DNA from: Acidobacteriota bacterium
Lineage (GTDB): Bacteria; Acidobacteriota; UBA6911
Length of the DNA: 32,643 nt
Direction of reading: 5' to 3'
Assembly (NCBI GenBank): GCA_023265215.1
Contig: JAHFUH010000011.1
Span: forward strand, 1 to 32,643
The translations under genes were made by a program, and so were the position numbers. Positions 6,628 to 32,607 of this stretch are shown here, piece by piece. The notes beneath the pieces were generated by a model. It did not search any database. It was not told where the DNA came from and saw only the letters and a list, made by a program, of their open reading frames with translations. Every line of letters begins with the position of its first letter. The stretch's first letter is position 1.

Positions 6628-6703
6628 ACTCAGCTCCCCTGTCCATTTCTGATTAATGGCATTTGACAAACATCGCTCATCGAAGGTCGTGATTATAACT
6701 GAT

Positions 6704-15080: not shown

Positions 15081-15119
15081 TAAGAGCTGTTGTCGGAACC
15101 GGTTGAATAGCCCCGCTGA

Positions 15120-15248: not shown

Positions 15249-15402
15249 TGCCTCCCTGCTTTTTTCGGGGTCGGCTTTGGTAGAACCTCAACCACCATTT
15301 AACGTTCTTCCTAATTGTGACTACCCAACTCGATCCAACAAATTAGGCTTGCTGAATTAAAAAGCCGACCCCGATACCGACCCCGACGCCCGACCCCGAT
15401 GG
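15249..15402. repeat. hairpin cassette copy 2 (same family as 14904-15080)
   Basis: It starts with the same 26-nt block. The short left arm is ttcggggtcggcttt (15264-15278). The right arm is aaaaagccgaccccgataccgaccccgacgcccgaccccgatgg (15359-15402). The loop is about 70 percent identical to copy 1 by eye, and the block gatccaacaaattagKcttgctgaatt is nearly identical. Confidence 0.9.
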
Positions 15403-16307: not shown

Positions 16308-16850
16308 ATGAATCCTGCTCAATTGAACGAAAAAGCACCAGAAGAATTCAAGGCAAAATTCGAAACCACAAAAGGCGATTTTGTCGTGGATGTCACGCGA
16401 GAATGGGCACCCAACGGAGCCGACCGGCTCTATAACCTGGTGAAGAACGGGTATTACGACAACTGTCGTTTTTTCAGAGTGGTGGAGAATTTCATGGTAC
16501 AGTTCGGAATCAATGGCGATCCCGATCTGAACACTATCTGGCGCGCAGCCCGGATTCCAGACGACCAATCCACACAATCCAATTCGCGGGGATGCGTCAC
16601 ATTCGCCACTGCAGGGCCGAATACGCGCACGACACAGCTGTTTGTCAATTTCGCAGATAATTCATTCCTGGACAGCCAGGGTTTCACCCCTTTGGGCAAG
16701 GTGAGTGAAGAAGGAATGAAGGTTGTAGAATCTATTACCGCGAAATATGGCGAAAAACCCGACCAGGGACGAATGCAGAGAGAAGGAAATGCCTATCTGG
16801 AACAAGCATTCCCCGATCTCGACTACATTAAATCCGCCACAATTTTATAA
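16308..16850 (+). CDS. cyclophilin-type peptidyl-prolyl cis-trans isomerase
   Basis: FFRVVENFMVQFG and FATAGPNTRTTQLFVNF match cyclophilin signatures. The start at ATG 16308 has GGAG 6 nt upstream. Confidence 0.9.
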   Translation: MNPAQLNEKAPEEFKAKFETTKGDFVVDVTREWAPNGADRLYNLVKNGYYDNCRFFRVVENFMVQFGINGDPDLNTIWRAARIPDDQSTQSNSRGCVTFATAGPNTRTTQLFVNFADNSFLDSQGFTPLGKVSEEGMKVVESITAKYGEKPDQGRMQREGNAYLEQAFPDLDYIKSATIL

Positions 16851-16910
16851 AAACACCACGGATTTCAGGGAAAAACATTCTGCGATAATCCGTGAAATCC
16901 GTGGCGTTTT
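16850..16910. terminator. hairpin of the CCACGGATT family between convergent genes (likely bidirectional terminator)
   Basis: ccacggatttca (16856-16867) pairs perfectly with tgaaatccgtgg (16893-16904). The pairing extends to about 18 bp with one mismatch. An A-run lies on the left and cgtttt on the right. It sits exactly between the cyclophilin stop and the metV stop. Confidence 0.5.
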
Positions 16911-17580
16911 ATTTCACTTGGTGTTCTTTGCGTACAACCTTGCGGGCGCCGCAGTACCAGGCATGACTCCAGTCTTTCGGTGGAATTATTTCTTCAAGCC
17001 TGTCCAGTTGCCCGATGCTTTTTAGCCGGGAATATATCAACTGCCAGGCACAGGGCCTGTCCGAATCCACTTCGCATCGGCTTTCGAGTGAACCGCCGCA
17101 GGGCCCGTTCAATAGCCGTTTGGCGCATCGTGTCACGGGGCAAATTCCTCCGAACTGCGCCAGCATACAGTCGCCGCAACCCAGGCACTTCTCCGTCCAG
17201 ATCGCCTGCTCTTCCAGCACGCCCAGGAATTGGGTGTTGAGCCCGGCGTAAACCGGAATGGCGGGAAACCGTTCCGCAATCGCCTGAACGCCGGCTCCGC
17301 ACCCGAAAGAAACAATCGCCTCAACTTCGGCCGCAGGGCCCGCCAGGTCTTTGATGAATTCATTTTCACACTGGCGCTCAATCGTAACCTGCCGGATTTC
17401 TATAGGGCTGCGGTCGAGTTTGCGTGCCATCCGCATTGCATAGGAAGCGATCCCGACTTCGCGTTCTCCTCCTGCGAGGCACACAGTGACGCAAGTTCCG
17501 CATCCCACAAAAAGAACCTTCTTGTGATCTGCGATTATTTTTTTCAATTCTGTAATTGACTTGGGTGAGGCAACAATCAT
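16909..17580 (-). CDS. metV: MetV: methylenetetrahydrofolate reductase C-terminal-domain (zinc-ribbon/Fe-S) protein
   Basis: CGDCMLAQFGGICPVTRCAKRLLNGPCGGS is the hallmark of the MTHFR_C family. An N-terminal GCGTCVTVC cysteine cluster is also present. The start overlaps the mvhD stop (ATGA). Confidence 0.8.
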   Translation of the reverse strand: MIVASPKSITELKKIIADHKKVLFVGCGTCVTVCLAGGEREVGIASYAMRMARKLDRSPIEIRQVTIERQCENEFIKDLAGPAAEVEAIVSFGCGAGVQAIAERFPAIPVYAGLNTQFLGVLEEQAIWTEKCLGCGDCMLAQFGGICPVTRCAKRLLNGPCGGSLESRCEVDSDRPCAWQLIYSRLKSIGQLDRLEEIIPPKDWSHAWYCGARKVVRKEHQVK

Positions 17581-18038
17581 GATTCTCCTGCACTTTCTTT
17601 ATTTTCAGACGGCTTGAGAGGACTTGGTCCCAGAGCCGTCACTGTCGACACAATTTCCTGCACATGCTGGACAAATTCCGGCGCCATAGCATCCGAGACG
17701 TTCACCATTTTGAGCCGCTCGCTTCCAAGCCCGATCTCATCAAGAATGAGACAGACGCGCTCGGTTCTTTTTCGCGCCCTCAAGTTGCCTTCCATGAAGT
17801 GGCAGCCCCCTTCGAGGCACCCGACCACCAGAACACCATCGACACCTCTTTCAAAGGCATCCAAAATGTATTCCATTTCAATCTTGCCGGTGCAGGGCAT
17901 ATGGACGATCCGCAAGCCGGCGGAGTATTGCATGCGCTGGATGCCCGCAAGATCCGCCGCCGCAAATCCGCAATAGTTGCAACAAAAGGCGATAATTTCA
18001 GGGGTCCAGGCTGTCTGCTCTTTCTCCAGCTGCATCAT
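17577..18038 (-). CDS. mvhD: MvhD (methyl-viologen-reducing hydrogenase delta subunit / FlpD family)
   Basis: IIAFCCNYCG, HMPCTGKIE and VVGCLEGGCHFMEGN motifs. I placed the start at ATG 18038, which overlaps the TGA of the HdrA-like gene (GTATGA). The track extension to 18248 lies inside that gene. Confidence 0.85.
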   Translation of the reverse strand: MMQLEKEQTAWTPEIIAFCCNYCGFAAADLAGIQRMQYSAGLRIVHMPCTGKIEMEYILDAFERGVDGVLVVGCLEGGCHFMEGNLRARKRTERVCLILDEIGLGSERLKMVNVSDAMAPEFVQHVQEIVSTVTALGPSPLKPSENKESAGES

Positions 18039-21000
18039 ACCAACCCTCCTCCAACGAGCAGCTCGTCCAGCATTGCGGTCACGATGCGGCTGTCCTGATG
18101 CTGCAGCATAATAGTTCTGGCAGGGCAAACCGCAACGCAGCTTCCGCATCCCATGCACTTTGCACCCTGGATTTCGGACTTTCGGACATCGTTGATAACG
18201 GGAGCTCCATAAGGGCAAACCTTGACGCAGGTAGCGCAGGCGACGCAATTAACCGGATTGACATGAGCCACCTGCCCGGCGATCTCCAGCTCAGCCTTCG
18301 ACAGAATTCTGGCTGCCCGGCCTGCCGCAGCCTGAGCCTGCGCAATCGTCTCATCGATGAATCGCGGCGAGTGAGCCAAGCCGCACAGGAATTCTCCTTC
18401 ATTGCTCAGATCCACCGGCCGAAGCTTGGAATGAGCTTCCTGGAAAAAGCCATCCGCATTCAAAGCGCTCCGTAGCGTGCCGGATATGGCAGGATTGTCC
18501 CGGCCAGGCGCGATTCCGGTTGAAAGCACAAGCAGGTCCGGCCGCAAAACCAGATCCCGGCCTGTGGCCGCATCGTGAACCGTCACCTTGATTTGTCCGC
18601 CTTCTTCAACGACCTCGGGGTCCTGACCGTCCGGGCGGCGAATGAACTGCACGCCCTGCTCGCGAGCCTTCTGATAAAAAGCATCCCGGAATCCCGGGGT
18701 TCGAATGTCGCGGTACAAAATAACAACGTTGGAACGCGGCTTGCGCTTTTTAATCTCCAGTGCATTTTTGATCGCTTCAGAACAGCAAACCCGGCTGCAA
18801 TATGGATGCTTTTCGTCCCGGCTCTCAACGCACTGAATCATAACAACTGAAGGATTCGGCTTATCCTCCAACTGCGCGATCGGGTTCCCTGCAAGCGCCG
18901 ACTCCAGTTTGGCCTGAGTGATGACGCGAGGGTTTTTGCCGTTGAAATATTTTTGAGTCGATTGCTCTTGTCCCCCGGTTGCAACAATGACGGAGCCATG
19001 CTCGATGGTCTGCTCCAGGCCCGCAATACTCAACACGCTTTTAAAATTGCCCACCTGCCCGGCAATTGCGGCCAATCTCGCATTCAAATGCACGGTAATC
19101 GAAGGCATTGATAGAGTCTTGGATGTCAAATCACGAATCCGCAACTGAACATCATCCCCCTCGAGAGTGCTGCAAAGTTTAGCCGCCTGCCCGCCGAGAC
19201 TCGATTCCTTTTCAACCAGATGCACCTTATAGCCCTGGCCGGCAATGTTTAAAGCCGCGGTCATCCCTGCAATCCCGCCGCCCAGGATCAACGCCGATGC
19301 CGTCACCGGAACTTCCCCGTTCCTCAATGACTTCAGATGGCGAGCCCGCGCGACCGCCATCGACACAAGATCGATCGCTTTTTCTGTTGCAGCGGCCGGA
19401 TCATCCCTGTGCACCCAGGAACACTGATCCCGTATATTCGTCATTGCCAGAAGGTACTGATTCAATCCGCTTTCACGCAGCGTTTCCTGGAAGAGGACCT
19501 CGTGCGTTCTCGACCAGCAGGATGCAATGACGAGCCGATTGAGCCGGTGCTTCCTGATCATTTCCTTGATGTGCTGCTGGTTGGCTTCCGAGCAGGTGTA
19601 GATGCTCGCCTCGGCGTGGCGCACGCCGGGCATTGCCGCCGCTCTTCTGGCAAGCCGCTCTACATCCACAACCGACGAGATATTATGACCGCAATGGCAG
19701 ACGAAGACGCCAATCCGGGGAGCCTCGTCCGCAACATCCCGCTCCCAGGGATATTCATGCCGCTGGATCATGGTGCCGCGAACGGATGTCAGCTGCTCCA
19801 TTGCCGCCGCTGCAGCAGCCGAAGCCTGAACTACCGATTCGGAAATGTCTTTGGGCTCCTGGAAAGCGCCTGCCACGTAGATTCCCGGCCGCGACGCAGC
19901 AAGCGGCGAAAGCCTTCCAGTTCGCGCAAAGCCAAATTCGTTTAAGTCCAGCCCCAGGCGGCCTGCCATTTCCCTGGCTTCGGAAGGAACCTGAATTCCT
20001 GAACTGAGAACCACCAGATCAAATTCCTGTTGCTGCTCGGCGCCCGACTGGCTGATGTAGCACACGCGCGGATTTTTGGTAGCCGGCATTTCCTCAATGC
20101 GGGAGGGAATCGCACGCACGAACCTGATGCCAAACTCCCTCTGAGCCCGGACGATATACTTGTCGAATTCCTTGCCTGATGCGCACACATCGGAGCAGAA
20201 GATCGATACCTCGGGTCTGTCCTTGGCATGCTCCAACGCAGCCATCGCTTCTTTGGCGGCGCTCATGCAGCAGATTGCGGAGCAGTAACCATTCCCGCGT
20301 TCGGAATTCCGGCTTCCGACGCACTGGATAAATGCAATTTTTTTTGCAGGGCCTCTGTCGGATGGCCTATGCACTTTTCCACCCGTCAGCCCTCCAGCCG
20401 AAAGCATCTGCTCAAACTGGACATTCGAAAGCACGTTGGCCCACCGGCCGTGGCCATACTCTTCCCAATGAGCGGCAGGAAATTCTTCAATTCCAGGCGA
20501 GAGGATGATGCTGCCCACATCCAGGTCAAATTCGGAAATCTGCTGGTCCTGAAGCACCGCACCGGCGGTGCAAGCCTGGACACACTGCATGCACTCGCTG
20601 CAAAGGCCGCACGACAGGCAGCGCCTGGCTTCTTTCTCTGCCTGCTCTTTGATATAGCCCGCCTCGATTTCAGAAAAACTCCCCACTCGATCGCCGGTAC
20701 TCATCCGGGAAACAGGAACTCTCTCCTGCTTTGGCGCTTCCGGAGCGGGATTTTTTGCAAAACCGGAGTTCGCTGAATTCGGGGAAGATCCGGCGGAGGC
20801 GTGCGCAACCGATGCGGTGTTGCGAATATAGGCCGCACCACGAATGAAAGCGTCAATCGACTCGGCAGCCTTGTGGCCTTGAGCAATCGAATCCACAACG
20901 GAGGATGGGCCCAGAACCGCGTCACCGCCTGCGAAAACTCCGGAGACGTTTGTAGCTTGAGAAGCATCCGCGCGGATCCTACCGCCGGGCCGCAACTCCA

Positions 21001-22531
21001 GTCCAAGACCGGAAGAATTGAGTCCCTGGCTCAAAGCAACAATGACTGTGTCTGCCGGGAGCGAAGTTATGGCGGAATCGTCATACAGCGGGTCAAACTT
21101 CTTGTATTCGTCAAAGACGCTGGTGCACGCCCGGAAAACCGCAGAAGAAACTTTTCCTTCCGCAGCCTCGAACCTCGTGAGCCCCAGCCTGTGATAAAAA
21201 GCCACTCCTTCCTCGAGAGCCTCGGCCACGTGCCATGCGCGGGCAGGCATTTCCTCGCGGTTCTCGATGCACGCGACACTCACCGATTTCACTCCCGGCA
21301 GGCGCAATGCGCTTCGCGCAGCATCCATGGCCATATCGCTGCCGCCGATCACCAGCACCTCCGGCCCTATTTTCGGAGAGCATTTCGTGTTTACTTCATA
21401 AAGGAATTTCTGTCCTTCCCAAATGCCCGGAGCGTCCTCACCGGGGATACTCATTTTTCGATTGCCCCAAGCGCCGGACGCAACGAATACAGCGCTGAAT
21501 TCATTCTGTGCAGTTCCGGCCGGCTGCGCTTTTGATTTGAGCAGATCTTTAGGCTTGTTGATTACAACGCCGGCCCGGACCTGCACGCCCAAGTTAAGGA
21601 TCTGACGGATATCTTTATCGAGAACTTCTTTGGGGAGACGATAATCGGGAATCCCGTAGCGGAGCATTCCGCCCAGGAGCGGCTGAGACTCGAAAATAGT
21701 AACGCCATAGCCGGCCAGAGCCAGATCGGCGGCGGCTGTCAAACCGGCCGGCCCGCTCCCAATCACAGCGACTCGCACACTCAGCGAAGGGCCCGCCGGA
21801 TTCCAGGCAGGGTATTGATCGGGGTTGGCATCGATGTAATCTGTGACAAACCTTTCGATAGCGCGGGCCGAAACAGCTTCATCAACCTCCCTGCGGTTGC
21901 AGTTGTCTTCACAAGGACGATTACAGATCCGGCCGCAGACGGCCGGAAGCGGGCAGCGCCGGCGGATGAGATCGTACGCTTCCTTGAATTTGCCCGCGGC
22001 AGTCAAGGCTATGTAGCCTTGAACATTCACCTCCGCGGGGCAGGATCCTTTGCAGGGCGCGGGTCCTGGAGATTTTGAAACACCGAAGACATTGGGAATA
22101 GCTTGCGGGTACGGGCGAAAAATCGCCTTGTGCTTGCTCAACCCGCGATCGAACTCGTTTGGCAATTCAACCGGGCACACAGCGGTGCAGTCGCCGCAGG
22201 CATCGCACTTCTTCAAATCCACATAGCGCGGATTCTGGCGGATTTTTACCTTGAAGCTCCCGGGCTGACCGGAAACGCTTTGGATGTCGGCCAGCGTAAT
22301 TATTTCAATGTTCCTATTTCTTGCGACTTCAACCAGCCTCGGCGAGAGGATGCACATGGCGCAGTCGCCGGTGGGAAAAGTCTTATCCAACTGCGACATC
22401 CGTCCGCCGATGGCCGGCGCCGAATCCAGCAGATAGACCTTGAATCCGCTGTCGGCCAGGTCCAGCGCCGCCTGAATTCCAGTGATTCCAGCGCCGCAAA
22501 CCAGCGCCGCTCCAATCGTTTCGTCACTCAT
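18035..22531 (-). CDS. 1498-aa fusion: HdrA-like module with an embedded GltD/NfnB-like NAD(P)H module, then a second HdrA-like module and a C-terminal 2x[4Fe-4S] ferredoxin domain
   Basis: Residues 1-150: GAGITGIQAALDLA, DCAMCILSPRLVE, CDACGDCTAVCP (HdrA). Residues about 155-565: CPAEVNVQGYI...CGRICNRPCEDNCNR, VAVIGSGPAGLTAA, LLGGMLRYGIPDYRLP, VLVIGGSDMAMDAAR, VFAGGDAV (GltD-like). Residues about 637-910: CLSCGLCSECMQCVQAC, FIQCVGSRNSERGNGYCSAICC, GIYVAGAF. Residues about 940-1040: VFVCHCGHNI. Residues about 1078-1410: LILGGGIAGMTAAL, MIQCVESRDEKHPYCSRVCC. Residues 1429-1470: CVACATCVKVCP and CMGCGSCVAVCP. Confidence 0.85.
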   Translation of the reverse strand: MSDETIGAALVCGAGITGIQAALDLADSGFKVYLLDSAPAIGGRMSQLDKTFPTGDCAMCILSPRLVEVARNRNIEIITLADIQSVSGQPGSFKVKIRQNPRYVDLKKCDACGDCTAVCPVELPNEFDRGLSKHKAIFRPYPQAIPNVFGVSKSPGPAPCKGSCPAEVNVQGYIALTAAGKFKEAYDLIRRRCPLPAVCGRICNRPCEDNCNRREVDEAVSARAIERFVTDYIDANPDQYPAWNPAGPSLSVRVAVIGSGPAGLTAAADLALAGYGVTIFESQPLLGGMLRYGIPDYRLPKEVLDKDIRQILNLGVQVRAGVVINKPKDLLKSKAQPAGTAQNEFSAVFVASGAWGNRKMSIPGEDAPGIWEGQKFLYEVNTKCSPKIGPEVLVIGGSDMAMDAARSALRLPGVKSVSVACIENREEMPARAWHVAEALEEGVAFYHRLGLTRFEAAEGKVSSAVFRACTSVFDEYKKFDPLYDDSAITSLPADTVIVALSQGLNSSGLGLELRPGGRIRADASQATNVSGVFAGGDAVLGPSSVVDSIAQGHKAAESIDAFIRGAAYIRNTASVAHASAGSSPNSANSGFAKNPAPEAPKQERVPVSRMSTGDRVGSFSEIEAGYIKEQAEKEARRCLSCGLCSECMQCVQACTAGAVLQDQQISEFDLDVGSIILSPGIEEFPAAHWEEYGHGRWANVLSNVQFEQMLSAGGLTGGKVHRPSDRGPAKKIAFIQCVGSRNSERGNGYCSAICCMSAAKEAMAALEHAKDRPEVSIFCSDVCASGKEFDKYIVRAQREFGIRFVRAIPSRIEEMPATKNPRVCYISQSGAEQQQEFDLVVLSSGIQVPSEAREMAGRLGLDLNEFGFARTGRLSPLAASRPGIYVAGAFQEPKDISESVVQASAAAAAAMEQLTSVRGTMIQRHEYPWERDVADEAPRIGVFVCHCGHNISSVVDVERLARRAAAMPGVRHAEASIYTCSEANQQHIKEMIRKHRLNRLVIASCWSRTHEVLFQETLRESGLNQYLLAMTNIRDQCSWVHRDDPAAATEKAIDLVSMAVARARHLKSLRNGEVPVTASALILGGGIAGMTAALNIAGQGYKVHLVEKESSLGGQAAKLCSTLEGDDVQLRIRDLTSKTLSMPSITVHLNARLAAIAGQVGNFKSVLSIAGLEQTIEHGSVIVATGGQEQSTQKYFNGKNPRVITQAKLESALAGNPIAQLEDKPNPSVVMIQCVESRDEKHPYCSRVCCSEAIKNALEIKKRKPRSNVVILYRDIRTPGFRDAFYQKAREQGVQFIRRPDGQDPEVVEEGGQIKVTVHDAATGRDLVLRPDLLVLSTGIAPGRDNPAISGTLRSALNADGFFQEAHSKLRPVDLSNEGEFLCGLAHSPRFIDETIAQAQAAAGRAARILSKAELEIAGQVAHVNPVNCVACATCVKVCPYGAPVINDVRKSEIQGAKCMGCGSCVAVCPARTIMLQHQDSRIVTAMLDELLVGGGLV

Positions 22532-22629
22532 TTAAATTTTCCTGGACCGCCTTGGCGGCCCCTTGTGTTTGTACATATTTCCATTGGACGCTTCGCACCG
22601 GATCAAAAGCGCGGAAGGCGCGAGCTATC

Positions 22630-25251: not shown

Positions 25252-25265
25252 GAATTCAATTTTTA

Positions 25266-25449
25266 GGCCCGAAGGGCCGGCAATTAATAGACCCGACCGT
25301 CAGGTCGGGATTAGCCTGGCGATGAAAATGAGCACCGAAGGTGCGGCACTCTAAGAATCTGCCGGTGTCGCACCTTCGGCGCTCATTTCTATTGCGGCCC
25401 CATTTCCCGGCCTCACGGCCGGGCCTATTTATTACCGGTCCTTCGGACC
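25266..25449. repeat. array of five stable hairpins inside the operon
   Basis: ggccc gaa gggcc (25266-25278); cccgacc gtca ggtcggg (25292-25309); a 20-bp stem aaatgagcaccgaaggtgcg / cgcaccttcggcgctcattt (25326-25345 / 25369-25388, 19/20); cccggcc tcac ggccggg (25406-25423); ggtcc ttc ggacc (25437-25449). Confidence 0.85.
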
Positions 25450-25472
25450 TCCATTACTCAGATCTCCGAGTA

Positions 25473-27041
25473 CTACTCCAAGTAACAAAGGACGTCGCTG
25501 CGGCCGCGCAGTTCGCGGATTGACGACACTCCGAGCCGGCTCAACACACCAATCATCTGTTCGTGCCAGGCATTCTGCAGGTTAATCAATCTCTGGGTCG
25601 CCCACTCGAGGCCCATCAAATCCATCAGTTCGGGATCAGTCGACGCAATTCCGCGCGGGCAGCCTCTGCCACTTTCGCAGCAGGCGCAGCGCACGCAGCC
25701 AAGCGCCACCATCTCCGCCGTGCCGATCACGACCCCATCGGCTCCCAGCGCAATTGCTTTGAGCGCATCGTAGGCCGTGCGGATCCCGCCGGAGGCTATC
25801 AGCGTAATCTTCTCCCGGATGCCCTCAGCGACCAGAAACTTATGCACCTTGGGAATGGCGAACTCGATGGGCATTGCAATATTTTTCTTCGCAATGTCCG
25901 GCGCCGCGCCCGTACCTCCATAGCTGCCGTCCAGGTGAATGATGTGAGCACCGGCGTAATAGCTTCCCACCGCAACCATGTCTACATCGGTAGGTGTTGA
26001 TACCTTCACGCTCACCAGGCACCTGGGATTGACTTCCTTGATCCAGTCCAGGTGCTTTTTGTGATCTTCCACGCTGTAAACGCTGTGGAATGGAAAAGGA
26101 CTGAACAATGCATTTCCGGGAACTGCCCCTCGCATTCGCGCAACCGCCGGAGTGTTCTTGTCGCCCAGCAGATGTCCGCCGAGCCCCGGTTTGGCACCCT
26201 GGGCATATTTGAATTCCACAATCCTCACGCGCTGAATCGTCTCCTCGCGTACGCCGAAAAGACCGGTTGCAACTTGGGTGATCATGTGGTCGTCATAAGG
26301 CATGAGCCTGTCGGGATACCCCCCCTCCCCAGTGCAGCTGAAGCTGTTCCATGCAACCGCAGCCCGGGCTTTTGCAAGAATCGTGTGAATGCTGACGGAC
26401 CCGAAGCTCATTCCCCCGCCATAGACCGGTATGTCGATGTGAATCTGCGGCCGGCCATCCTCACGGCGATTCAGATCCAACCCCGTATCAATCGCTTCGG
26501 CTGCAACCCGCGATCCGCCTCCATCCAGCCCGGGAATTTCAAACTTAAACCGGATCTGGTCAAACCCTCCCCCAGAAGCACCGTGTCTGAACTCCAGATG
26601 CGAAGGCGGAGTGTGCCCGGTCTCCGCTTCATGCCATGTGGACAGGATCAGATCGCTGGACCAGCGCGGATCTCCAAAGCACTCAACATTGGGATTCAGG
26701 CTCATGACCAGCGCTTTTTGCGGACACTGGCTGATGCAGTCGCTGCCGGCCTCTGTGCAAGCCGGGCCGATGCAAAGGTAATCCTGAGGCCGCGACATTA
26801 AGGCGTACCCCTCCGGCTTGACGTGCACGCCGTATCCGCACACTTCAACGCAACGGCCGCAAGAAATGCATTTGGCCAGCCGGTCGATTTTGTACTTTCC
26901 GATCGCATTGCGGTATCGCTCAGGCACAGGCCGGATTTTCCGTTCGATATCCTCCTGCGGCCAATCGCTGTGGCCCGGCCTTTGCGGCAGCGCTTCTTCC
27001 TGAATTTCCAGATCGGACTTAATTGCTGTGGTTGTGGTCAT
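25473..27041 (-). CDS. glutamate synthase FMN-binding (GltB domain 2) subunit with N-terminal Fe-S cysteine motifs, archaeal-type
   Basis: CISCGRCVEVCGYG and CIGPACTEAGSDCISQCP cysteine motifs. The canonical substrate/FMN blocks are present: FKYAQGAKPGLGGHLLG, DGSYGGTGAAP, ASGGIRTAYDALKAIALGADGV. A cluster-like LGCVRCACCESGRGCPRGIAS is also present. Confidence 0.85.
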   Translation of the reverse strand: MTTTTAIKSDLEIQEEALPQRPGHSDWPQEDIERKIRPVPERYRNAIGKYKIDRLAKCISCGRCVEVCGYGVHVKPEGYALMSRPQDYLCIGPACTEAGSDCISQCPQKALVMSLNPNVECFGDPRWSSDLILSTWHEAETGHTPPSHLEFRHGASGGGFDQIRFKFEIPGLDGGGSRVAAEAIDTGLDLNRREDGRPQIHIDIPVYGGGMSFGSVSIHTILAKARAAVAWNSFSCTGEGGYPDRLMPYDDHMITQVATGLFGVREETIQRVRIVEFKYAQGAKPGLGGHLLGDKNTPAVARMRGAVPGNALFSPFPFHSVYSVEDHKKHLDWIKEVNPRCLVSVKVSTPTDVDMVAVGSYYAGAHIIHLDGSYGGTGAAPDIAKKNIAMPIEFAIPKVHKFLVAEGIREKITLIASGGIRTAYDALKAIALGADGVVIGTAEMVALGCVRCACCESGRGCPRGIASTDPELMDLMGLEWATQRLINLQNAWHEQMIGVLSRLGVSSIRELRGRSDVLCYLE

Positions 27042-27076
27042 GCATCACCTATGTTAAAAGGATCCGTATGCATTTG

Positions 27077-27191
27077 CCCTTACAGAGCCCCGGCCAATCC
27101 TCCACCCCCTATTTCGGGAGGAGCAACCCCTTGGCGTGGAGAAATGGCCCCGGGCAACAAAAATTGCCCGGCGCCAGGGGGCCCTGTAAGG
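27077..27191. repeat. nested hairpins inside the operon (CCCTGTAAGG family)
   Basis: The outer imperfect stem is cccttacagagcccc (27077-27091) against gggggccctgtaagg (27177-27191). Inner stems are tcctcc/ggagga and a perfect 8-bp ccgggcaa caaaaa ttgcccgg (27150-27171). The ccctgtaagg core also occurs at 9438-9447. Confidence 0.75.
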
Positions 27192-27247
27192 ACTATGGAT
27201 AACAGGCTCGACTCGCCAGAGGAAAAACCTGCTATCCATATTTCAAA

Positions 27248-28651
27248 TCATGCACATGCCTGTTCCTGCGGCACTCGAATCAGATCTCCGAATGATTCCT
27301 TCTCAATTTCTTCCATGAAAATTGCTCGGCCCATTTCGCCGCGCAGCCGGCGCACCTCGCGGATGCCCATGGCTCCAAGAACTTCAATCAATTGGCTGTG
27401 CCATGCGCCAATCAGGTTCACTATTCTCTGGGCCGCATATTCGCTGTCCATGGAATCAATCCCGACGGGACAACCGGCCGGCGAATGTCCGCCGCGGCAC
27501 ACCCTGCAGCCGAGCGCAACCAGCAAAGCGGTATCCGCTGTCACAAGATCGGCGCCACAGATAATCGCCTTGGCCATGTGTTCGGCCAGCGCAATGCCCC
27601 CTGAAATTATCAGCGTGATTTCATCTCGCAGCCCGCTGTCAACAAGACGCGTGTGAATCTCGCGCAGCGCATCCTTGATATGGCGTCCCGACAAATCGCG
27701 TCCGTGCAGATCGGCGCACAAATGAAACACTTTCAACCCGCTCCCCGACAGCTCGATGATGCGTTCAGCAGACTTGGGACCAATCGCCGCCCGGACAGAG
27801 AGGATCGCCTCCGGACGCATGCTCCGTATCCGGTTTGCCGTGCCCAGAATCTCCGGGCCGTCGAGCAATTGAATCATCGGACTGGCGCTGTGGATCACAT
27901 TGCTGAAATCCGGAATGTCGTCGCCGGCAAAAATTGGAATAACCGAAGGCAGGAGTTCCGGCTGCAGGCGCGCGGCTTCCTTCGCAAACATCACGGCAAA
28001 TGTCTTCAGCTCTTTTGCAGCCAAAGCGCGACTGTGGGCAAGCTCAAATTGATGGGTGGGCCATTGCGGAATGTCCAGGATTGCCGGAACCTGGACTTCC
28101 ACCAGGTTTAGGACCGGGGTAAGCATCCCGCCTTCCGGAGTAAAGCTCAGCCGCATCGGCTTTGGACCAATGTCGACAGATGTGGAAATATATTCACGGC
28201 CGTGAATGCCATCGCGCGTCGGCCGGACGATTTCCGACATGTCCGTCCAGATGGAATCAAATCCGGGCCCGTGAAAGGGGCCTCGATAGCCGGCGCCCGA
28301 CACTGGAATTTTTCCCGAGTCGGCTTGCGTCCATGTGCTGGAGAGAATGTCCGGCTTCCAATACTCATCACCCATTTCCAGAAATTCCGGATTCACGGAA
28401 AGGCTCAGCAAACCTTTGGTGCAGCCCTGAACGCAGGAAAGGCAGGCTTTGCACTCGTACAGGGTCTGGGTGGCTGCGAGAGGATCCCGGTTGTGAGCCG
28501 ACTCGTGTTTGTAGACGTCGTAATTGCATCGGGGCTTCACGCAGTTGCTGCAACGCGAGCAATCCTCGCGCCAGTCGACGCCTCCGAATTTGCCGATCCG
28601 GTAAAACCGGCCGGGAGTTGGGACTGTATGGATATGGTATCGGTCAGGCAT
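27248..28651 (-). CDS. divergent glutamate-synthase FMN-domain paralogue with N-terminal 2x[4Fe-4S]-type motifs, lacking the canonical substrate loops
   Basis: CSRCSNCVKPRC and CKACLSCVQGC motifs. GFDSIWTDMSEIVRPTRDG...TSVDIG, ISGGIALAEHMAKAIICGADLV and LGCRVCRGGHSPAGCPVGI are collinear with the neighbouring canonical subunit. No QGAKPGxGG or GGTGAAP block is present. Confidence 0.7.
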   Translation of the reverse strand: MPDRYHIHTVPTPGRFYRIGKFGGVDWREDCSRCSNCVKPRCNYDVYKHESAHNRDPLAATQTLYECKACLSCVQGCTKGLLSLSVNPEFLEMGDEYWKPDILSSTWTQADSGKIPVSGAGYRGPFHGPGFDSIWTDMSEIVRPTRDGIHGREYISTSVDIGPKPMRLSFTPEGGMLTPVLNLVEVQVPAILDIPQWPTHQFELAHSRALAAKELKTFAVMFAKEAARLQPELLPSVIPIFAGDDIPDFSNVIHSASPMIQLLDGPEILGTANRIRSMRPEAILSVRAAIGPKSAERIIELSGSGLKVFHLCADLHGRDLSGRHIKDALREIHTRLVDSGLRDEITLIISGGIALAEHMAKAIICGADLVTADTALLVALGCRVCRGGHSPAGCPVGIDSMDSEYAAQRIVNLIGAWHSQLIEVLGAMGIREVRRLRGEMGRAIFMEEIEKESFGDLIRVPQEQACA

Positions 28652-28675
28652 ATTTTACTTTCTGCTATAAGCACT

Positions 28676-28763
28676 CACCGCAGAGACGCTGAGAACGCAA
28701 AGGGCGCAGAGGAATTTTTATATTAATCTCTGCGATCTCGGCGTCCTCCGCGTCTCTGCGGTG
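28676..28763. repeat. long imperfect hairpin of GAGACGC-type units inside the operon
   Basis: The outer 14-bp stem is perfect: caccgcagagacgc (28676-28689) against gcgtctctgcggtg (28750-28763). The inner stem is cgcagag/ctctgcg, with an AT-rich apex (aatttttatattaat). Degenerate units are gagacgc, gagaacgc and gaggacgc. Confidence 0.85.
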
Positions 28764-28787
28764 AAGATGAAAATAGAGGACGCTTCG

Positions 28788-29678
28788 CTATTTCGCAATC
28801 CGGCCTAAAACAATCGCAGCGGTTGACTCGCAACCCCCGCTGAGAATATGAATCCCACGAACTCCGGCAACTTCCTTCAGCCGTGCGGCCATATCCGAAG
28901 CTATAGCCGCGCCCTCCTGAGCCTCGTCTGCCGCATTGCCGATCCGATCGATGACATGCTCTGCGATCGGTCCATACATCTGGCTCTGCTGCAGGGCTTT
29001 GGCTTGAGCCACGCCGGTTAGCGGCAATACACTGGCGATAATCGCAGTCCGCCTATCAAGGCCGGCCGCGCGCACCTCATCCATCCACAGGCAAAAACCT
29101 TCGAGGTCGAATACGGCTTGAGTTATGACAAAATCCGCCCCTGCCACAATCTTCTTTTTAAACCGGAGAAGATTCAGATCCATCGGACGCAAATAAGGAT
29201 GAGCCACTGCTCCAACCTGGAACTTCAGCTTTGGCTCAATTTCTTTGCCGTCGAATGCCGATCCGTCAAGAATCATTCTCTTTAAAGCCTGAGTGAATTG
29301 AACCGAATCCAGGTCATTCGCCGCTGCAGCCTGCGGGCAAACGCCCATCGATTGATGCTGCCCGCTCATGCAGAGGATCGCGGAAAAATCCAGAGCTGCT
29401 GCTCCCAAAGCATCGCTTAAAAGCGCAAGTCGATTGCGATCGCGGGTCGCCATCGATAATACAATGCCAGTATGGCCCGCATTTCGCAGGATCCGAGCCG
29501 TTGAAAATGCCGAACTGCGAATTTCATCAGGATTGTCCGCAATCACAATGGCGTCGAGACCCGAAGGGAGCGCAGACGAAAGATTCCGGACGGCCTTGAA
29601 ATCAGAACCGCGAGGGGGCAGGCATTCAGCCGTCAATATTAGGCGGTTGGAATTCAACGCCTGTGCAAAGCTGTTCAT
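28788..29678 (-). CDS. metF: methylenetetrahydrofolate reductase MetF (anaerobe type)
   Basis: The TIM-barrel MTHFR pattern includes SMATRDRNRLALLSD (compare the TCRDRNR block of MetF), ADNP, and AGADFVITQAVFD. The start overlaps the upstream mvhD-like stop (ATGA). Confidence 0.8.
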   Translation of the reverse strand: MNSFAQALNSNRLILTAECLPPRGSDFKAVRNLSSALPSGLDAIVIADNPDEIRSSAFSTARILRNAGHTGIVLSMATRDRNRLALLSDALGAAALDFSAILCMSGQHQSMGVCPQAAAANDLDSVQFTQALKRMILDGSAFDGKEIEPKLKFQVGAVAHPYLRPMDLNLLRFKKKIVAGADFVITQAVFDLEGFCLWMDEVRAAGLDRRTAIIASVLPLTGVAQAKALQQSQMYGPIAEHVIDRIGNAADEAQEGAAIASDMAARLKEVAGVRGIHILSGGCESTAAIVLGRIAK

Positions 29679-30190
29679 TTTCCCTCCTGCAATAAATCCC
29701 CTTGCGTCTGAAGGGGACTGGAAGGAAAAGTCTGAAGAGCCTGAAGCACCTGATCACGAATAGCCTCCAACTGGCTGTTCAGTGACTCCGATCCGTTCGT
29801 CCCAGGCTTTCTATGCGCAGCCAGCGCCAGATCCTCAGCGGCAGAACCCGGAAGATACGAGAGCAACAAACGCTCATCACCCAGCCCGATCTCTTTCAGG
29901 ATCGACCGGATGTAATCCACCCGGCGCGCGCAGCGCCTGCTCCCCTCTATGTAATGGCAGTTGTCTTCCTGGCAGGCAACCACCGAAACAATGCTCGCCC
30001 CCGACTCAAACGCCCTCAGGACATGCTCAGGCTGAAGACGGCCCGTGCACGGAACAACCACCTGCTGAAAATTGCCGGGCCAGTTGAAATCGGGGACACT
30101 GGGCCGCGCCCGCCCGGCAGAAGACAACTCCTTGCCAGGCCGCGCACAATTGGCGCAAATAAAAACGGTAACGCCGGAAATGCTTTCCAC
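29675..30190 (-). CDS. second MvhD/FlpD-family iron-sulfur protein
   Basis: VFICANCAR, VVPCTGRLQPEHVLRAFESGA and VVACQEDNCHYIEGS follow the FlpD pattern. The GTG start is preceded by AGGAGGG. Confidence 0.8.
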   Translation of the reverse strand: MESISGVTVFICANCARPGKELSSAGRARPSVPDFNWPGNFQQVVVPCTGRLQPEHVLRAFESGASIVSVVACQEDNCHYIEGSRRCARRVDYIRSILKEIGLGDERLLLSYLPGSAAEDLALAAHRKPGTNGSESLNSQLEAIRDQVLQALQTFPSSPLQTQGDLLQEGK

Positions 30191-30206
30191 CTACCCTCCT
30201 GAATTT

Positions 30207-30533
30207 CTATGCTGCCGACTCGGAGCAATCAGTCCGAGGCAGAACAGTACCATCCGCATCCAGCTGGTATTCCTCACACTGCAGCACGCCGCAGCGCGCA
30301 TTCGGGAATCCGCAATTTTCCACATGCAGGCAATTGGCGCATAAACCCATGCCGGCCGCGTCCTTGGGATCCATTGCCACCCTACCTTCGGAAACAGACG
30401 GTTTCTGGGCAAAAGGCTGAACCGAAAATTCTTCGCACTGAATAATTTCGAGTTTAGTGCTTCGCCTGAGCATGCAGGTGGGGTCATGCTCACATGTTTC
30501 ACAAAGACCGTAATACTTTGGCATTTCAGCCAT
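30207..30533 (-). CDS. 108-aa cysteine-rich protein with an internal duplication; function unknown
   Basis: There are two repeats of G-L-C-x2-C-x-H-x3-C-x(9-13)-QCEE-aromatic: GLCETCEHDPTCMLRRSTKLEIIQCEEF and GLCANCLHVENCGFPNARCGVLQCEEY. A purine-rich RBS (GGGGAAAGGA) lies upstream. It is the first gene after the sigma-54 promoter. Confidence 0.6.
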   Translation of the reverse strand: MAEMPKYYGLCETCEHDPTCMLRRSTKLEIIQCEEFSVQPFAQKPSVSEGRVAMDPKDAAGMGLCANCLHVENCGFPNARCGVLQCEEYQLDADGTVLPRTDCSESAA

Positions 30534-30579
30534 AAGTTTAATCCTTTCCCCTAAGGTTAAAAAACAACCCTATGGCTAT

Positions 30580-30595
30580 AGCAAAAAATATGCCA
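30580..30595 (-). promoter_or_regulatory. sigma-54 (-24/-12) promoter
   Basis: The minus strand reads TGGCAT-ATTTT-TTGCT, with GG and GC at exactly the consensus spacing of TGGCACG-N4-TTGCW. The GC lies 48 nt upstream of ATG 30533, and a sigma-54 activator gene is immediately upstream. Confidence 0.65.
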
Positions 30596-30664
30596 ATGGG
30601 GAAATTTTTAAGATAAAAACATCCTTCATTTTATCAAATTATGTTGCAGATGTTTATCAATATT

Positions 30665-30681
30665 ATGAAATATTATTTCAT
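30665..30681. promoter_or_regulatory. perfect 8-1-8 palindrome ATGAAATA-T-TATTTCAT (candidate upstream activator site)
   Basis: Read directly. Its centre is about 100 nt upstream of the predicted start site. It is flanked by direct repeats TTTATCAA(A/TA)TTATG at 30630-30643 and 30653-30667. Confidence 0.35.
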
Positions 30682-30705
30682 ATCTATAAAATCGGTGTGG
30701 ATTTT

Positions 30706-30720
30706 AAAATGGTCCATTTT
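30706..30720. promoter_or_regulatory. perfect 7-1-7 palindrome AAAATGG-T-CCATTTT (candidate upstream activator site)
   Basis: Read directly. Its centre is about 140 nt upstream of the predicted sigma-54 start site. Confidence 0.35.
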
Positions 30721-30798
30721 GTTTACCATGGGCCAATATATTACCAGCGTCCTTCCGCGTCGTCCGTGTATTCCGCGTCCGGTACGAAAAACCGCTGT

Positions 30799-32607
30799 CT
30801 ACAAAATCCCGTAGTGGTCCAGTTTTTTTCGGAGAGTCACGCGGCTTAGGTTGAGAAGATCTGCCAGTTCCCTTTGGCTGTATTGACTCGATTCCACAAG
30901 GTAACGCAGGAGAGTTTCCTCGACTGTTTCTATCAGGGTGTCCCGAATCCCTGCTGGATTGCTTCGTCCTGCAAGAAACCGGATAACCGCCTGGCGAAGC
31001 TCCGATTTGGGATCCAGGGCGGCGCTCGAATCAGCGATCGCGGGAGACGGAGGAGTACTTTCCCGGATTTCCTCAGGAAGGAGATCGAGAGAGACAGTGT
31101 TGTCGGGACTCATCACGACGGCGCGTTCAATGCAGTTTTCCAGTTCCCGAACATTTCCGGGCCAGGAATGTGCCAGCAGGGCGTCCAAAGTTTCTCGCGG
31201 CACGACCGTGACCTGGCGGCCGGCTTCCCGGTTGTATTTTTCCAGGAAATGGTCCACCAGCAGCGGGATGTCTTCACGGCGCTCGCTCAGCGGAGGGAGT
31301 TGGATGGGGATTACGTTCAGCCGGTAAAACAGATCATGCCGGAACCTTCCGGCTTTGATTTCAGAGCGCAGGTCACGGCCGGTTGCAGCCACGATGCGGA
31401 CGTCCACAGCCAGGGTCCGGCTTGACCCTACCGGCTCCAGCTGGCGCTCCTGCAGGACCCGAAGAAGCTTCACCTGCAGCCGCGGGCTCATTTCGCTGAC
31501 TTCGTCCAGGAAAAGGGTGCCGCCTTCGGCAGCCCTGAACCTGCCTTCGTAATCGCGCACTGCCCCGGTAAATGCGCCTTTCACGTGGCCGAACAGCTCT
31601 GTTTCGAGCAGCGTTTCAGGCAAAGCGCCGCAATTGACCTTAACCAGCGGGCCGGCGGCGCGGTCGCTGTTGTAGTGCACGACATTCGCGATCAGTTCTT
31701 TGCCTGTGCCGGTCTCTCCAGTTATCAGCACCGAGGATCGGGACCGGGCAGCAGTTGCCGCCACGCCAAGCAGGCGCCGGATAGCCGCGCTGCCGCCGAC
31801 AATGCTGTCGACGCGATAGGTCCGGCGCAGTTCTTCTCCCCTCCGGGTCAGCCGGTCGAGGTCCCGGACTTCGATCATCTCGCCGTCCTGCGCAACGAAT
31901 CCCTCGTCAAGATCCAGCGGCTGCGGCACGCCTATCGCCGCGCTTCGTCCCGCGGCCTTGTGCACGGTAAGGGCGCGCTGCCCGTTCGAGAGCGAAATTT
32001 CCATAACAACCTGGGTAATGTGCCGCACCTTAGCCAGAAATGCTTCGCTGTGGGCTTGGGTTTCGATCAGCCAGTAAGCAAGAGTGGAAAGGTCGTACAG
32101 CCTGGGGCAGAGATGGCCGAACAGGCGCACAATCCTGTTTTCGTCCCCCCAGAGATCCAGCATACCGGTAAGGGAGTCAAAAACGTAGTTCGCCGATTGG
32201 CCGCCGCGCGTCCCCACTTCAATCAAAGCCTGCTCAAGACGGGAAGGGTCGGCGGGATCGGCAATGTGGACGGGGGCATGAACGGCGTCGCGCACAGGAT
32301 CGTCGAAAAATTTCAGGAACATCTCGTCGGAGTTGCCTTTGCCGGACGAAAAACAGTCAATCAGCGAAAACCGCCCGGGGGACATAAGCTTGGCATACTT
32401 CGATGCGATCGTTTGAGGCGAGCGGTTGAAGCTTACATAAACGACCGGAACGTTCCCCTTTTCGCATGCGGCAACGAAACGTGAAATAAAATGATCTCCC
32501 GCCACGCCGGAATCAATTTCCCACACGAGGTTATCGCCTGCGATCACCCCGCCGATGGCTTTATCCACTTCCGGTATGCCGGTTGTAGGCTTGATCTTAG
32601 CTGGCAT
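30799..32607 (-). CDS. sigma-54-dependent Fis-family transcriptional activator with an N-terminal degenerate KaiC/RecA-like domain
   Basis: AAA+ core: VLITGETGTGKE (Walker A), GAFTGA, GGTLFLDEV (Walker B). C-terminal HTH: SQRELADLLNLSRVTLRKKL. The N-terminal 230 aa or so follow the KaiC/RadA pattern (TGIPEVDKAIGG, VVYVSF, YVFDSLTGML, ALTVHKAAGRS), but DSGVAGDH stands where the P-loop GxxGxGKT would be. Confidence 0.9.
   Translation of the reverse strand: MPAKIKPTTGIPEVDKAIGGVIAGDNLVWEIDSGVAGDHFISRFVAACEKGNVPVVYVSFNRSPQTIASKYAKLMSPGRFSLIDCFSSGKGNSDEMFLKFFDDPVRDAVHAPVHIADPADPSRLEQALIEVGTRGGQSANYVFDSLTGMLDLWGDENRIVRLFGHLCPRLYDLSTLAYWLIETQAHSEAFLAKVRHITQVVMEISLSNGQRALTVHKAAGRSAAIGVPQPLDLDEGFVAQDGEMIEVRDLDRLTRRGEELRRTYRVDSIVGGSAAIRRLLGVAATAARSRSSVLITGETGTGKELIANVVHYNSDRAAGPLVKVNCGALPETLLETELFGHVKGAFTGAVRDYEGRFRAAEGGTLFLDEVSEMSPRLQVKLLRVLQERQLEPVGSSRTLAVDVRIVAATGRDLRSEIKAGRFRHDLFYRLNVIPIQLPPLSERREDIPLLVDHFLEKYNREAGRQVTVVPRETLDALLAHSWPGNVRELENCIERAVVMSPDNTVSLDLLPEEIRESTPPSPAIADSSAALDPKSELRQAVIRFLAGRSNPAGIRDTLIETVEETLLRYLVESSQYSQRELADLLNLSRVTLRKKLDHYGIL

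Follow-up and report, generated by a model that had tools for sequence, protein, structure and literature searches.

A conserved operon in Acidobacteriota and other phyla that combines a predicted split glutamate synthase with HdrL, MvhD and MetFV-type proteins

In a 32,643-nt stretch of DNA from an Acidobacteriota bacterium (contig JAHFUH010000011.1 of assembly GCA_023265215.1), the whole of which is referred to as the window, the minus strand carries between positions 16909 and 32607 an operon in which the genes of a split glutamate synthase (GOGAT) are interleaved with metF, metV, two mvhD genes and a gene for a giant flavoprotein of the HdrA type, HdrL. Judged by sequence comparison this operon is real, widely conserved and uncharacterised, and it is a new combination of known kinds of parts that includes at least one unrecognised GOGAT architecture. 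The reading that we favour, and to which we give slightly less than an even chance, is that it encodes a single multi-subunit flavin/Fe-S enzyme with glutamate synthase as its catalytic end, which would be fed by NAD(P)H via a wire of HdrL, MvhD and MetV (with or without MetF), would possibly be coupled to ferredoxin and would be controlled by a dedicated sigma-54 activator. Most nitrogen enters biomass through glutamate synthase, which incorporates ammonia into amino acids and whose known electron sources are NAD(P)H via GltD, ferredoxin and possibly F420. By joining a four-part glutamate synthase with electron-handling proteins otherwise typical of methanogens and acetogens, the operon points to a so far undescribed way, possibly an energy-saving one, in which anaerobic soil bacteria could power their nitrogen assimilation.

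The preliminary description of this DNA had listed eleven open reading frames (ORFs) from 32607 down to 16909. Strand, order and positions proved to be right but the count is ten, as the eleventh entry is the promoter gap. Along the minus strand these are the genes for the sigma-54 activator, a Cys-rich 108-aa protein, MvhD1, MetF, the degenerate GltB paralogue GltB', GltB, a glutamine amidotransferase (GATase)/GXGXG fusion, HdrL, MvhD2 and MetV. The junctions had been described as short gaps or 4-nt ATGA overlaps, and the overlaps do exist at three of them (MvhD1/MetF at 29675-29678, HdrL/MvhD2 at 18035-18038 and MvhD2/MetV at 17577-17580); the remaining junctions are gaps of 16, 98, 136, 206, 221 and 265 nt. 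The proteins of the window were annotated by profile searches against Pfam and NCBIfam, which returned those same domains that had been assigned by eye.

To follow the operon in other organisms we used a tblastn survey of 165 loci (labelled L001 etc.) together with gene-neighbourhood listings. As the surveyed loci are those most similar to the query, the frequencies given here describe this sequence neighbourhood and not the whole family. The order MvhD-MetF-GltB'-GltB-GATase/GXGXG-(HdrC-HdrB)-HdrL-MvhD-MetV, in which the HdrC and HdrB genes are optional, recurs in at least three phyla: it was seen in Bryobacteraceae and other metagenome-assembled genomes (MAGs) of Acidobacteriota, in Actinobacteria RBG_16_64_13 (Actinomycetota) and in Armatimonadota, as well as in dozens of metagenome contigs, many of them from peat, wetland and sediment. 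It was present in 21 of the 28 metagenome or genome loci with both flanks visible. Because the interleaved order is conserved across phyla and often comes with overlapping stop and start codons, the gene set appears to be one functional unit and no chance juxtaposition, which bears out the earlier view of one apparent operon. Among the 50 loci with enough upstream sequence GltB and GltB' were found in all 50, and MetF and FlpD in 46, FlpD being located upstream of GltB' in these 46. From the 28 loci with both flanks, 18 encode MetF, MetV, HdrL and HdrB, and three (L004, L017 and L084, Acidobacteriota or unlabelled) possess HdrL without HdrB as in the window. A Hdr-free six-gene operon, MvhD-MetV-MetF-GltB'-GltB-GATase/GXGXG, is found in MAGs of Desulfobacterales including Desulfosarcina. 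By this distribution HdrL is an optional add-on and the recurrent core consists of MvhD, MetF/MetV and GOGAT.

Several single loci are worth mentioning beside this. L100 and L102 encode the activator, MvhD, MetF, GltB', GltB, GATase/GXGXG and MetV but neither HdrL nor a second MvhD, so flanking of the GOGAT genes by metF and metV does not depend on the presence of Hdr. In L144 (Ga0209606_1000183) two complete MetV-MetF pairs are present, one upstream of GOGAT and one downstream of HdrL-MvhD, and a glnA homologue lies about 8 kb upstream; this locus appears to stand between the Hdr-free arrangement and that of the window type. In L085 (14012-19681, on a 4.4-Mb long-read contig) hdrL is fragmented within an otherwise complete cluster, which is probably due to assembly frameshifts and not to biology.

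That the GOGAT part is a true glutamate synthase, as the preliminary description had proposed for its GOGAT-like genes, is very probable; this follows from the retention of motifs, from linkage to glnA, carA and purF in relatives and from a fusion of FlpD, GltB' and GltB. GltB (25473-27041; 522 aa; Pfam Glu_synthase 7e-90) starts with a ferredoxin-like domain followed by the flavin mononucleotide (FMN)/2-oxoglutarate domain with QGAKPGLGG, ARMRG, GGTGAAP and the cluster cysteines GCVRCACCESGRGCPRG. It matches residues 857-1168 of the Azospirillum GltS alpha subunit (3e-51) with Lys972, Arg992 and the 3Fe-4S Cys positions in register, and its homologues show QGAKPG (67 of 67) and GGTGA (66 of 67). 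The class-II GATase/GXGXG fusion (22630-25251; 873 aa; Pfam GXGXG 2e-13, GATase_6 2e-6) possesses the invariant EGGC39GVTGFAC with the N-terminal nucleophile (Ntn) Cys39. The leader in front of this Cys, approximately 38 aa here and variable among homologues (30-38 aa), resembles that of propeptide-made glutamate synthases. HQRYPTKG, HNGDFANY and TDTEV are invariant in the alignments, and 84-86 of 86 homologues carry the motifs. Further along the protein come a variable linker of helical character (about 440-600) and, at the C-terminus, the GXGXG beta-helix (Pfam residues 643-810); in the PDB the protein matched FwdC and GlmS. GltB' (27248-28651; 467 aa), in which Pfam Glu_synthase is recognised on residues 317-430 only, aligns with GltB by BLASTP in two blocks of 35% and 32% identity. 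The Cys-rich, ferredoxin-like region at its N-terminus and its last third, which has a Cys triad, are retained, QGAKPG and GGTGAAP are both missing, and none of its 57 homologues shows the catalytic motifs. GltB' is probably an Fe-S scaffold paired with GltB, and both are fused in L112. In L151 FlpD, GltB' and GltB form a single 1154-aa ORF, and because of this fusion MvhD1 (29675-30190; 171 aa; Pfam FlpD 7e-26; GTG start after AGGAGG) is assigned to the GOGAT module as its predicted [2Fe-2S]-type electron-transfer subunit. The glnA gene is located directly upstream of the GOGAT genes in the Hdr-free and MetF-free loci L155 and L111, and carA, carB or purF directly downstream of the cluster in eight loci; this linkage is a trait of the relatives and does not show in the window, whose contig ends at the activator.

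A search of 1.8 billion cluster representatives with the GATase/GXGXG protein gave 304 clusters at E <= 1e-30, which is relatively few. Giant polypeptides of 2200-3150 aa were found in which a GlcD-type FAD dehydrogenase and Fe-S domains are fused to GltB'-GltB-GATase-GXGXG, and by their domain content they look like a hydroxyacid-dehydrogenase-coupled glutamate synthase. Since these giant fusions, the Hdr-free operons and the HdrL clusters share the GOGAT module, it seems to behave as a portable electron-accepting unit that has been coupled by evolution to different partners. Examples of the giant proteins are P0268 (3016 aa), P0301 (3152 aa), P0314 (2526 aa), P0346 and P0360, which contain FAD_binding_4 and FAD-oxidase_C, Fe-S domains, a GltB'-like part, GltB (with QGAKPG and GGTGAAP), GATase and GXGXG.

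HdrL (18035-22531; 1498 aa) maps to solved HdrA structures (8rvu/5odc) in four stretches with E-values of 1e-155 to 1e-163, and NCBIfam HdrA2 likewise matches in four stretches. The first HdrA copy (residues 9-151 and 642-861) has no N-terminal domain, and its inserted-ferredoxin domain is split by an NfnB/GltD-like NAD(P)H-FAD-2x[4Fe-4S] module of about 480 residues (approximately 158-640). The second copy (residues 934-1490) possesses the N-terminal domain as well as the C-terminal ferredoxin domain but no inserted ferredoxin domain. Three GxGxxG flavin sites (at 13, 258 and 1084) and four CxxCxxCxxxC motifs are present, and the NAD(P)H/FAD module as well as the two HdrA flavin sites are conserved. 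The insert matches PRK12771 (5e-142), the gltA/gltD models fall on residues 158-673 inside HdrA, and the GltD-like subunit of Nfn (PDB 4YLF/4YRY, 5JCA) is matched with E-values of 1e-69 to 7e-63 over the Fer4_20, FAD and NAD(P)H domains. A GltD-like module built into HdrA had been noted before and the fusion is confirmed, but it is not novel: it corresponds to HdrL (PMC2702500) and can be compared with the HdrA-NfnB proteins of ANME-1 archaea (PMC9012536). The giant HdrA is thus the already named but uncharacterised HdrL, an assignment made by the published description of this protein type (PMC2702500, PMC5947623), first given for Desulfobacterium autotrophicum. Full-length homologues number in the hundreds, with more than 600 matches in genomes. 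The start codon of MvhD2 (17577-18038; 153 aa; Pfam FlpD 6e-43; true start at the ATG at 18038) overlaps the hdrL stop codon, in most of 80 genome loci FlpD comes after HdrL and in L037 both are fused, which marks MvhD2 as the canonical HdrL partner.

Within the window hdrB and hdrC (CCG domain) genes or remnants thereof gave chance matches alone (E > 0.3), and in this sense the system is without HdrBC as had been stated. As a property of the system this does not hold, as 18 of the 21 HdrL clusters with both flanks visible carry hdrCB, located between the GATase/GXGXG gene and hdrL. Among the loci compared, lack of HdrBC characterises a small Acidobacteriota sub-lineage that also has the activator, the Cys-rich ORF and the sigma-54 promoter. 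L088 has activator, Cys-rich ORF and promoter plus hdrCB, and the idea that the 108-aa Cys-rich protein substitutes for HdrBC was ruled out as this locus holds both.

In the single-enzyme reading the GATase domain would hydrolyse glutamine and deliver the ammonia to GltB, where FMNH2 would reduce 2-iminoglutarate. The electrons would reach the FMN via the [2Fe-2S] cluster of MvhD1, the ferredoxin-like domains of GltB' and GltB and the GltB cluster. HdrL would be the electron source here: NAD(P)H would be oxidised on its NfnB/GltD-like insert, and the electrons would run over the flavins and clusters of the tandem HdrA to MvhD2, to MetV (with or without the MetF flavin) and on to the GOGAT module. 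The couple 2-oxoglutarate plus NH3/glutamate lies at approximately -0.12 to -0.14 V and is pulled further by glutamine hydrolysis. Its potential comes close to that of the heterodisulfide couple, and the GOGAT arm could therefore take the high-potential electrons of an HdrA-type bifurcation while ferredoxin takes the low-potential ones; this would explain a possible loss of hdrBC in the sub-lineage. Transcription would start at the conserved sigma-54 promoter, driven by the adjacent activator, and would end at the hairpin after metV. Electron bifurcation itself is an inference. A more far-reaching version, which we consider unlikely, would see here the first electron-bifurcating glutamate synthase, built on an HdrL core, with the strongly exergonic, glutamine-driven reduction of 2-iminoglutarate replacing HdrBC as the high-potential branch and with reduced ferredoxin as a further yield of NAD(P)H oxidation; nitrogen assimilation would then add to energy conservation in energy-starved anaerobes. 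In this version MvhD-GltB'-GltB-GATase/GXGXG would be an unrecognised portable GOGAT class serving MetFV, HdrL and GlcD-like donors.

The preliminary description had instead placed a dual-function bifurcating complex in the foreground, with HdrL oxidising NAD(P)H and feeding two exergonic arms, both of them active, namely MetFV (methylene-tetrahydrofolate (THF) to methyl-THF) and GOGAT, while ferredoxin is reduced in parallel. Much in the gene arrangement fits this idea: since the GOGAT and hdrL genes lie between metF and metV, MetFV cannot be made unless the whole operon is expressed, MetF or MetV stands alongside the GOGAT genes in 46 of 50 loci, and HdrL-MvhD-MetV-MetF is the commonest context of HdrL elsewhere (approximately 30 of 80 genome loci). 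In addition, MetFV-HdrABC-MvhD is established in Moorella according to the statements quoting it in PMC7325909 and PMC8515935. The MetF sequence (28788-29678; 296 aa) speaks on both sides. Pfam MTHFR, although weak (4e-18), spans its full length (residues 6-280) and NCBIfam PRK08645 (the MTHFR half) matches with 4e-39. Glu18 (TAE18CLPP) aligns with the general-acid Glu of xxExxPP, Glu28 in E. coli, and is invariant in the MetF alignment; VITQ187AVFD aligns with ITQFFFD of E. coli and thereby provides the Gln183 equivalent. At the site of the folate-binding Asp (E. coli Asp120), however, Gln107 (MSGQHQ) is found, the register having been checked by a profile match to human MTHFR 6fcx (LsGd vs LRGD). 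In E. coli MetF, Asp120 acts in folate binding and catalysis. Ordinary MetV-MetF pairs keep the Asp without exception (32 of 32), as do 14 of 19 GOGAT-linked genes for which no HdrL is in view but just 12 of 28 window-type relatives; the other 16 show N, Y, F, Q, H, R, T, W or K, and three of them have also lost the catalytic Glu.

Identity among window-type (class-A) MetF sequences averages 50%, against 37-40% to the other classes, whose identity to each other is 56%; MetV stays at 67%. Class-A MetF evolves much faster than MetV or the GOGAT subunits. MetV itself (16909-17580; 223 aa, 14 Cys; Pfam DUF5981 / MTHFR C-terminal 3e-37) is 80-89% identical to its relatives, and a PDB sequence search with it gave no solved relative. 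The proposed link to methylene/methyl-THF is accordingly weak in this lineage, where the Asp120 site drifts freely among the window-type clusters. Because the folate-binding Asp is lost, a methylene-THF reductase arm appears doubtful, and for MetF the role of a flavin relay, or the status of a relic left over from an ancestral MvhD-MetVF-GOGAT enzyme, is more likely than catalysis as a methylene-THF reductase. The dual-function complex as a whole we therefore rate as unlikely, though not negligible. The drifting active site of MetF offers a natural experiment on how a catalytic subunit turns into an electron relay. A further MetF-like gene should be mentioned in this context: in the Desulfobacterota-type loci L018-L020, L028, L030, L044, L047, L050, L054 and L079 a second, very divergent copy is located directly upstream of hdrL. 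It shows 25-30% identity, has EG(E/D)DP in place of EGDHQ and occurs in many HdrL-MvhD-MetV-MetF clusters.

MetFV might also be the electron donor, with methyl-THF oxidation being pulled by GOGAT and HdrL balancing the surplus with NAD(P)H and ferredoxin. Methyl-THF oxidation has an E0' of approximately -200 mV, which is too positive for NAD+ reduction. The six-gene operon of Desulfobacterales would suit such a role, as it is self-contained without any other redox input, its MetF keeps the Asp, and these bacteria run the Wood-Ljungdahl pathway oxidatively. The window-type proteins derive from this class: the GOGAT-linked Desulfobacterales type is the nearest relative for 31 of 32 window-type MetF and 19 of 26 MetV, and for this reason the cluster probably arose from an MvhD-MetVF-GOGAT operon that gained hdrCB-hdrL-mvhD. 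Loss of the folate site once HdrL supplies NAD(P)H would fit a swap of donors, and by analogy the GOGAT module is joined in the giant fusions to a GlcD-type (2-hydroxyacid) dehydrogenase, which is a donor of similar potential. Yet the MetF of the window has no folate-binding Asp, so that this scheme describes the ancestor at best. GOGAT-only operons without a donor exist as well (L155, L111), for which an external donor such as ferredoxin suffices, and the flux of nitrogen assimilation is small compared to a catabolic methyl-THF flux. For the enzyme of the window we find this improbable.

Similarly little credence is given by us to two co-transcribed but unassociated enzymes, namely a ferredoxin-dependent archaeal-style GOGAT (MvhD1, GltB', GltB, GATase/GXGXG) and an HdrL-MvhD2-MetV(F) oxidoreductase. 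Each module is found alone elsewhere (GOGAT without HdrL, and HdrL-MvhD-MetVF without GOGAT), there is no fusion across the module boundary, and long structured gaps separate the genes of the window. The gene order is difficult to reconcile with this, as metF is located in the GOGAT half and metV at the far Hdr end, a split that is kept across phyla with overlapping stop and start codons in relatives. Moreover, window-type MetF and MetV descend from the GOGAT-associated and not from the HdrL-associated MetVF, and one sigma-54 promoter and one terminator bracket the gene set. Finally, a GOGAT-like module acting on another 2-oxo acid or a gamma-glutamyl amide, as does N-methylglutamate synthase (a three-part GOGAT homologue linked to C1 metabolism), and thus a novel redox arm unrelated to nitrogen assimilation, is very improbable, even if the amidotransferase weakly matches PurF/GlmS-type models (GATase_6/7) rather than GATase_2 of GltS and the module has an extra 160-residue linker domain and the degenerate GltB', since the 2-oxoglutarate Lys/Arg motifs (QGAKPG, ARxR) are invariant and as in GltS, glnA, carA and purF are repeatedly adjacent, and the Fe-S input domains imply a net reduction in contrast to the redox-neutral N-methylglutamate synthase.

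Several points weigh against the single HdrL-fed glutamate synthase that we prefer. Sequence does not tell whether bifurcation occurs, whether NADH or NADPH is used, or in which direction the electrons flow. The GOGAT module occurs without HdrL in five of the 28 loci (MetFV only) and alone in two more, so HdrL appears to be dispensable for GOGAT function. Fusions of MetF/MetV or HdrL with GOGAT subunits were sought in the 165 loci and none was found, so it is operon conservation alone that argues for a physical association of HdrL and GOGAT. Most relatives retain HdrBC, for whose role the model does not account. The kept Glu28 and Gln183 equivalents of MetF, the strongly conserved MetV and the Asp in 12 of 28 relatives would allow for a working MTHFR arm, and E. 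coli Asp120 variants retain some activity. The internal gaps of 98-221 nt with strong hairpins may leave room for processing or partial termination within the operon. An AlphaFold2 model of GATase/GXGXG, computed from a 25-sequence alignment, was set aside as it reached a mean pLDDT (predicted local distance difference test) of 52.9 and was confident in the 480-640 linker only.

No characterised complex of this composition had been known to the preliminary description, and our search of the full-text literature, with subscription-only papers outside its scope, found none either; in the open full texts there was also no description of GOGAT large-subunit-type genes within MetFV/MvhD/Hdr clusters or of a GOGAT containing MvhD or GltB'. 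The closest system is MetFV-HdrABC-MvhD, the methylene-THF reductase of Moorella thermoacetica (Mock et al. 2014, as quoted in PMC7325909, PMC5736913 and PMC8515935), for which, in the statements of these three papers, bifurcation is proposed with a second acceptor that is unknown. Both co-encode MetF, MetV, MvhD and an HdrA-type flavoprotein with an NAD(P)H site. Different from Moorella, the window has a 1498-aa tandem HdrL with the NfnB/GltD-like insert, no HdrBC, a second MvhD, and four GOGAT-type genes between metF and hdrL, with metF and metV apart and MetF devoid of the folate-binding Asp. HdrL of D. autotrophicum HRM2 was described as a heterodisulfide reductase/glutamate synthase fusion with mvhD always next to it (PMC2702500; Strittmatter et al. 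2009), and HdrABC/HdrL was detected at the protein level in Syntrophobacter fumaroxidans with a function that is still speculative (PMC5947623). The protein of the window shares with these the large HdrA with a glutamate-synthase-small-subunit-like NAD(P)H domain followed by mvhD, but their partners are DsrABC, HdrABC, formate-dehydrogenase-like proteins or MetVF and no GOGAT large-subunit-type neighbours were reported. In the HdrA-NfnB fusions of ANME-1 (HdrA9-11) an NfnB-like insertion of approximately 500 aa interrupts the inserted ferredoxin domain as in the window, and two bifurcation sites with NADPH as carrier were proposed (PMC9012536); these are archaeal, no tandem HdrA with this neighbourhood was shown for them, and they have no GOGAT module.

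With the bacterial NADPH-glutamate synthase GltBD (Azospirillum, PDB 1EA0/2VDC/6S6S) the operon has in common the Ntn amidotransferase whose N-terminal Cys stands behind a propeptide-like leader, the FMN/2-oxoglutarate barrel with its Cys-ligated cluster, the GXGXG beta-helix and the GltD-like module, and with the archaeal-type split glutamate synthase the distribution of domains on separate polypeptides. In contrast to both, GATase and GXGXG are fused with the FMN domain skipped, the GATase matches PurF/GlmS-type models, GltB' and MvhD are extra subunits, and the GltD-like module resides inside HdrA and is not bound directly to GltB. From the transhydrogenase NfnAB (PDB 4YLF/4YRY, 5JCA), whose GltD-like subunit, the holder of the Nfn bifurcating flavin, is matched by the HdrL insert, the system differs in having no NfnA (PyrK-like) partner, the module being an internal HdrA domain.

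If our reading is true, the operon would represent a new way to power GOGAT in Acidobacteriota, Actinomycetota, Armatimonadota and Desulfobacterales, and one that is abundant in peat, wetland and sediment metagenomes. A testable clue would also be obtained to the partner reaction of MetFV-Hdr complexes, so far unknown, and to the function of HdrL. Should the HdrL version bifurcate, anabolism would regenerate reduced ferredoxin and the short list of flavin-based bifurcating reactions would gain a new entry.

Predicted control by sigma-54, already proposed in the preliminary description, is backed by a conserved -24/-12 promoter and a linked activator. The activator (30799-32607; 602 aa; Pfam Sigma54_activat 5e-68, AAA_lid_14, HTH_8) possesses an AAA+ domain, in which GAFTGA stands at residue 344, and ends in a Fis-type helix-turn-helix (HTH), and orthologues of 78-83% identity are found at the same position in L017, L084, L088 and L100. 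Its N-terminal 260 residues (31825-32607) weakly match a KaiC/RecA-type ATPase, degenerate and without Walker A motif. An NtrC receiver or NifA GAF domain was sought in the activator and not found, the NifA and NtrC models staying below the cut-off and covering the AAA+/HTH part only. With a KaiC/RecA-like N-terminus and neither of these two domains, the activator does not support the suggested nitrogen-style control. This input domain (residues 1-260), unusual and uncharacterised for an enhancer-binding protein, shows approximately 80% identity in related loci.

The promoter TGGCAT-N5-TTGCT (TGGCATATTTTTTGCT; 30580-30595) is located 46 nt upstream of the ATG of the Cys-rich ORF and is the sole TGGCAY-N5-TTGCW match in the window, with 0.11 expected by chance. 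It is kept 44-63 nt upstream of the orthologous small ORF in L004, L017, L084 and L088 and is absent from clusters without activator; in the five orthologous upstream regions the GG and GC elements and the ribosome-binding site are invariant. About 70 nt upstream of the -24 element lies the perfect palindrome TGAAATAATATTTCA (30666-30680), present as a single copy in the window with 0 expected, whose core TGAA-N7-TTCA is invariant in the alignment of the same five regions and which is a candidate upstream activating sequence for the activator or a candidate integration host factor site. The first ORF behind the promoter (30207-30533) has no Pfam or NCBIfam match and consists of two repeats of C-x2-C-x5-C-x(n)-QCEE[FY]. 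Homologues were detected only in the activator-bearing loci L004, L017, L084 and L088, and L100 and L102 have the activator without this ORF. In L088 (5103-5909) the first repeat is fused in frame to the MvhD-like FlpD1, and the 108-aa protein is probably a small protein with a metal or an Fe-S cluster, docking on MvhD1. At the other end, directly after metV, a terminator-like hairpin with U-run (16848-16912; minimum free energy (MFE) -30.8 kcal/mol, z = -7.4), followed by UGUUUUUAU, is predicted to mark the end of the operon.

Three of the internal gaps on the minus strand are strongly structured: 25252-25472 with a near-perfect palindrome of approximately 190 nt and UUCG/GNRA-type tetraloop hairpins (MFE -135.9 kcal/mol, z = -13.2), 27042-27247 with several stacked hairpins (-108.8 kcal/mol, z = -7.8) and 28652-28787 with a long imperfect hairpin having 37-nt arms (-65.7 kcal/mol, z = -8.5). 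Conserved regulatory RNAs were ruled out, as the matching gaps of L084 fold no better than shuffles, and scans of the window with Rfam and for tRNAs gave no match. Similar palindromes are scattered over the other intergenic regions of the window, and the three gap hairpins resemble palindromic insertions specific to this lineage, with possible effects on mRNA processing or on subunit ratios. The palindrome after metV (AAAACGCCACGGATTTCA...; 16850-16912) recurs at 6702-6777, and long near-perfect inverted repeats are also present in the intergenic regions at 4792-4871, 9345-9565 and 14916-15083, which suggests a genome-wide family of elements like repetitive extragenic palindromes (REP). The other ORFs of the window encode, according to Pfam, short-chain dehydrogenases, xanthine-dehydrogenase-type subunits, a tannase, a MutS-like protein, an epimerase and a Zip transporter. 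Near a 424-aa ORF of unknown function a 135-nt direct repeat (14945-15079 / 15265-15399, 84% identical) with short repeats of the GGGGTCGGTATCGG type was observed, and runs of the CGGAAGC heptamer type are located at the intergenic positions 1522-1554 and 2771-2803.

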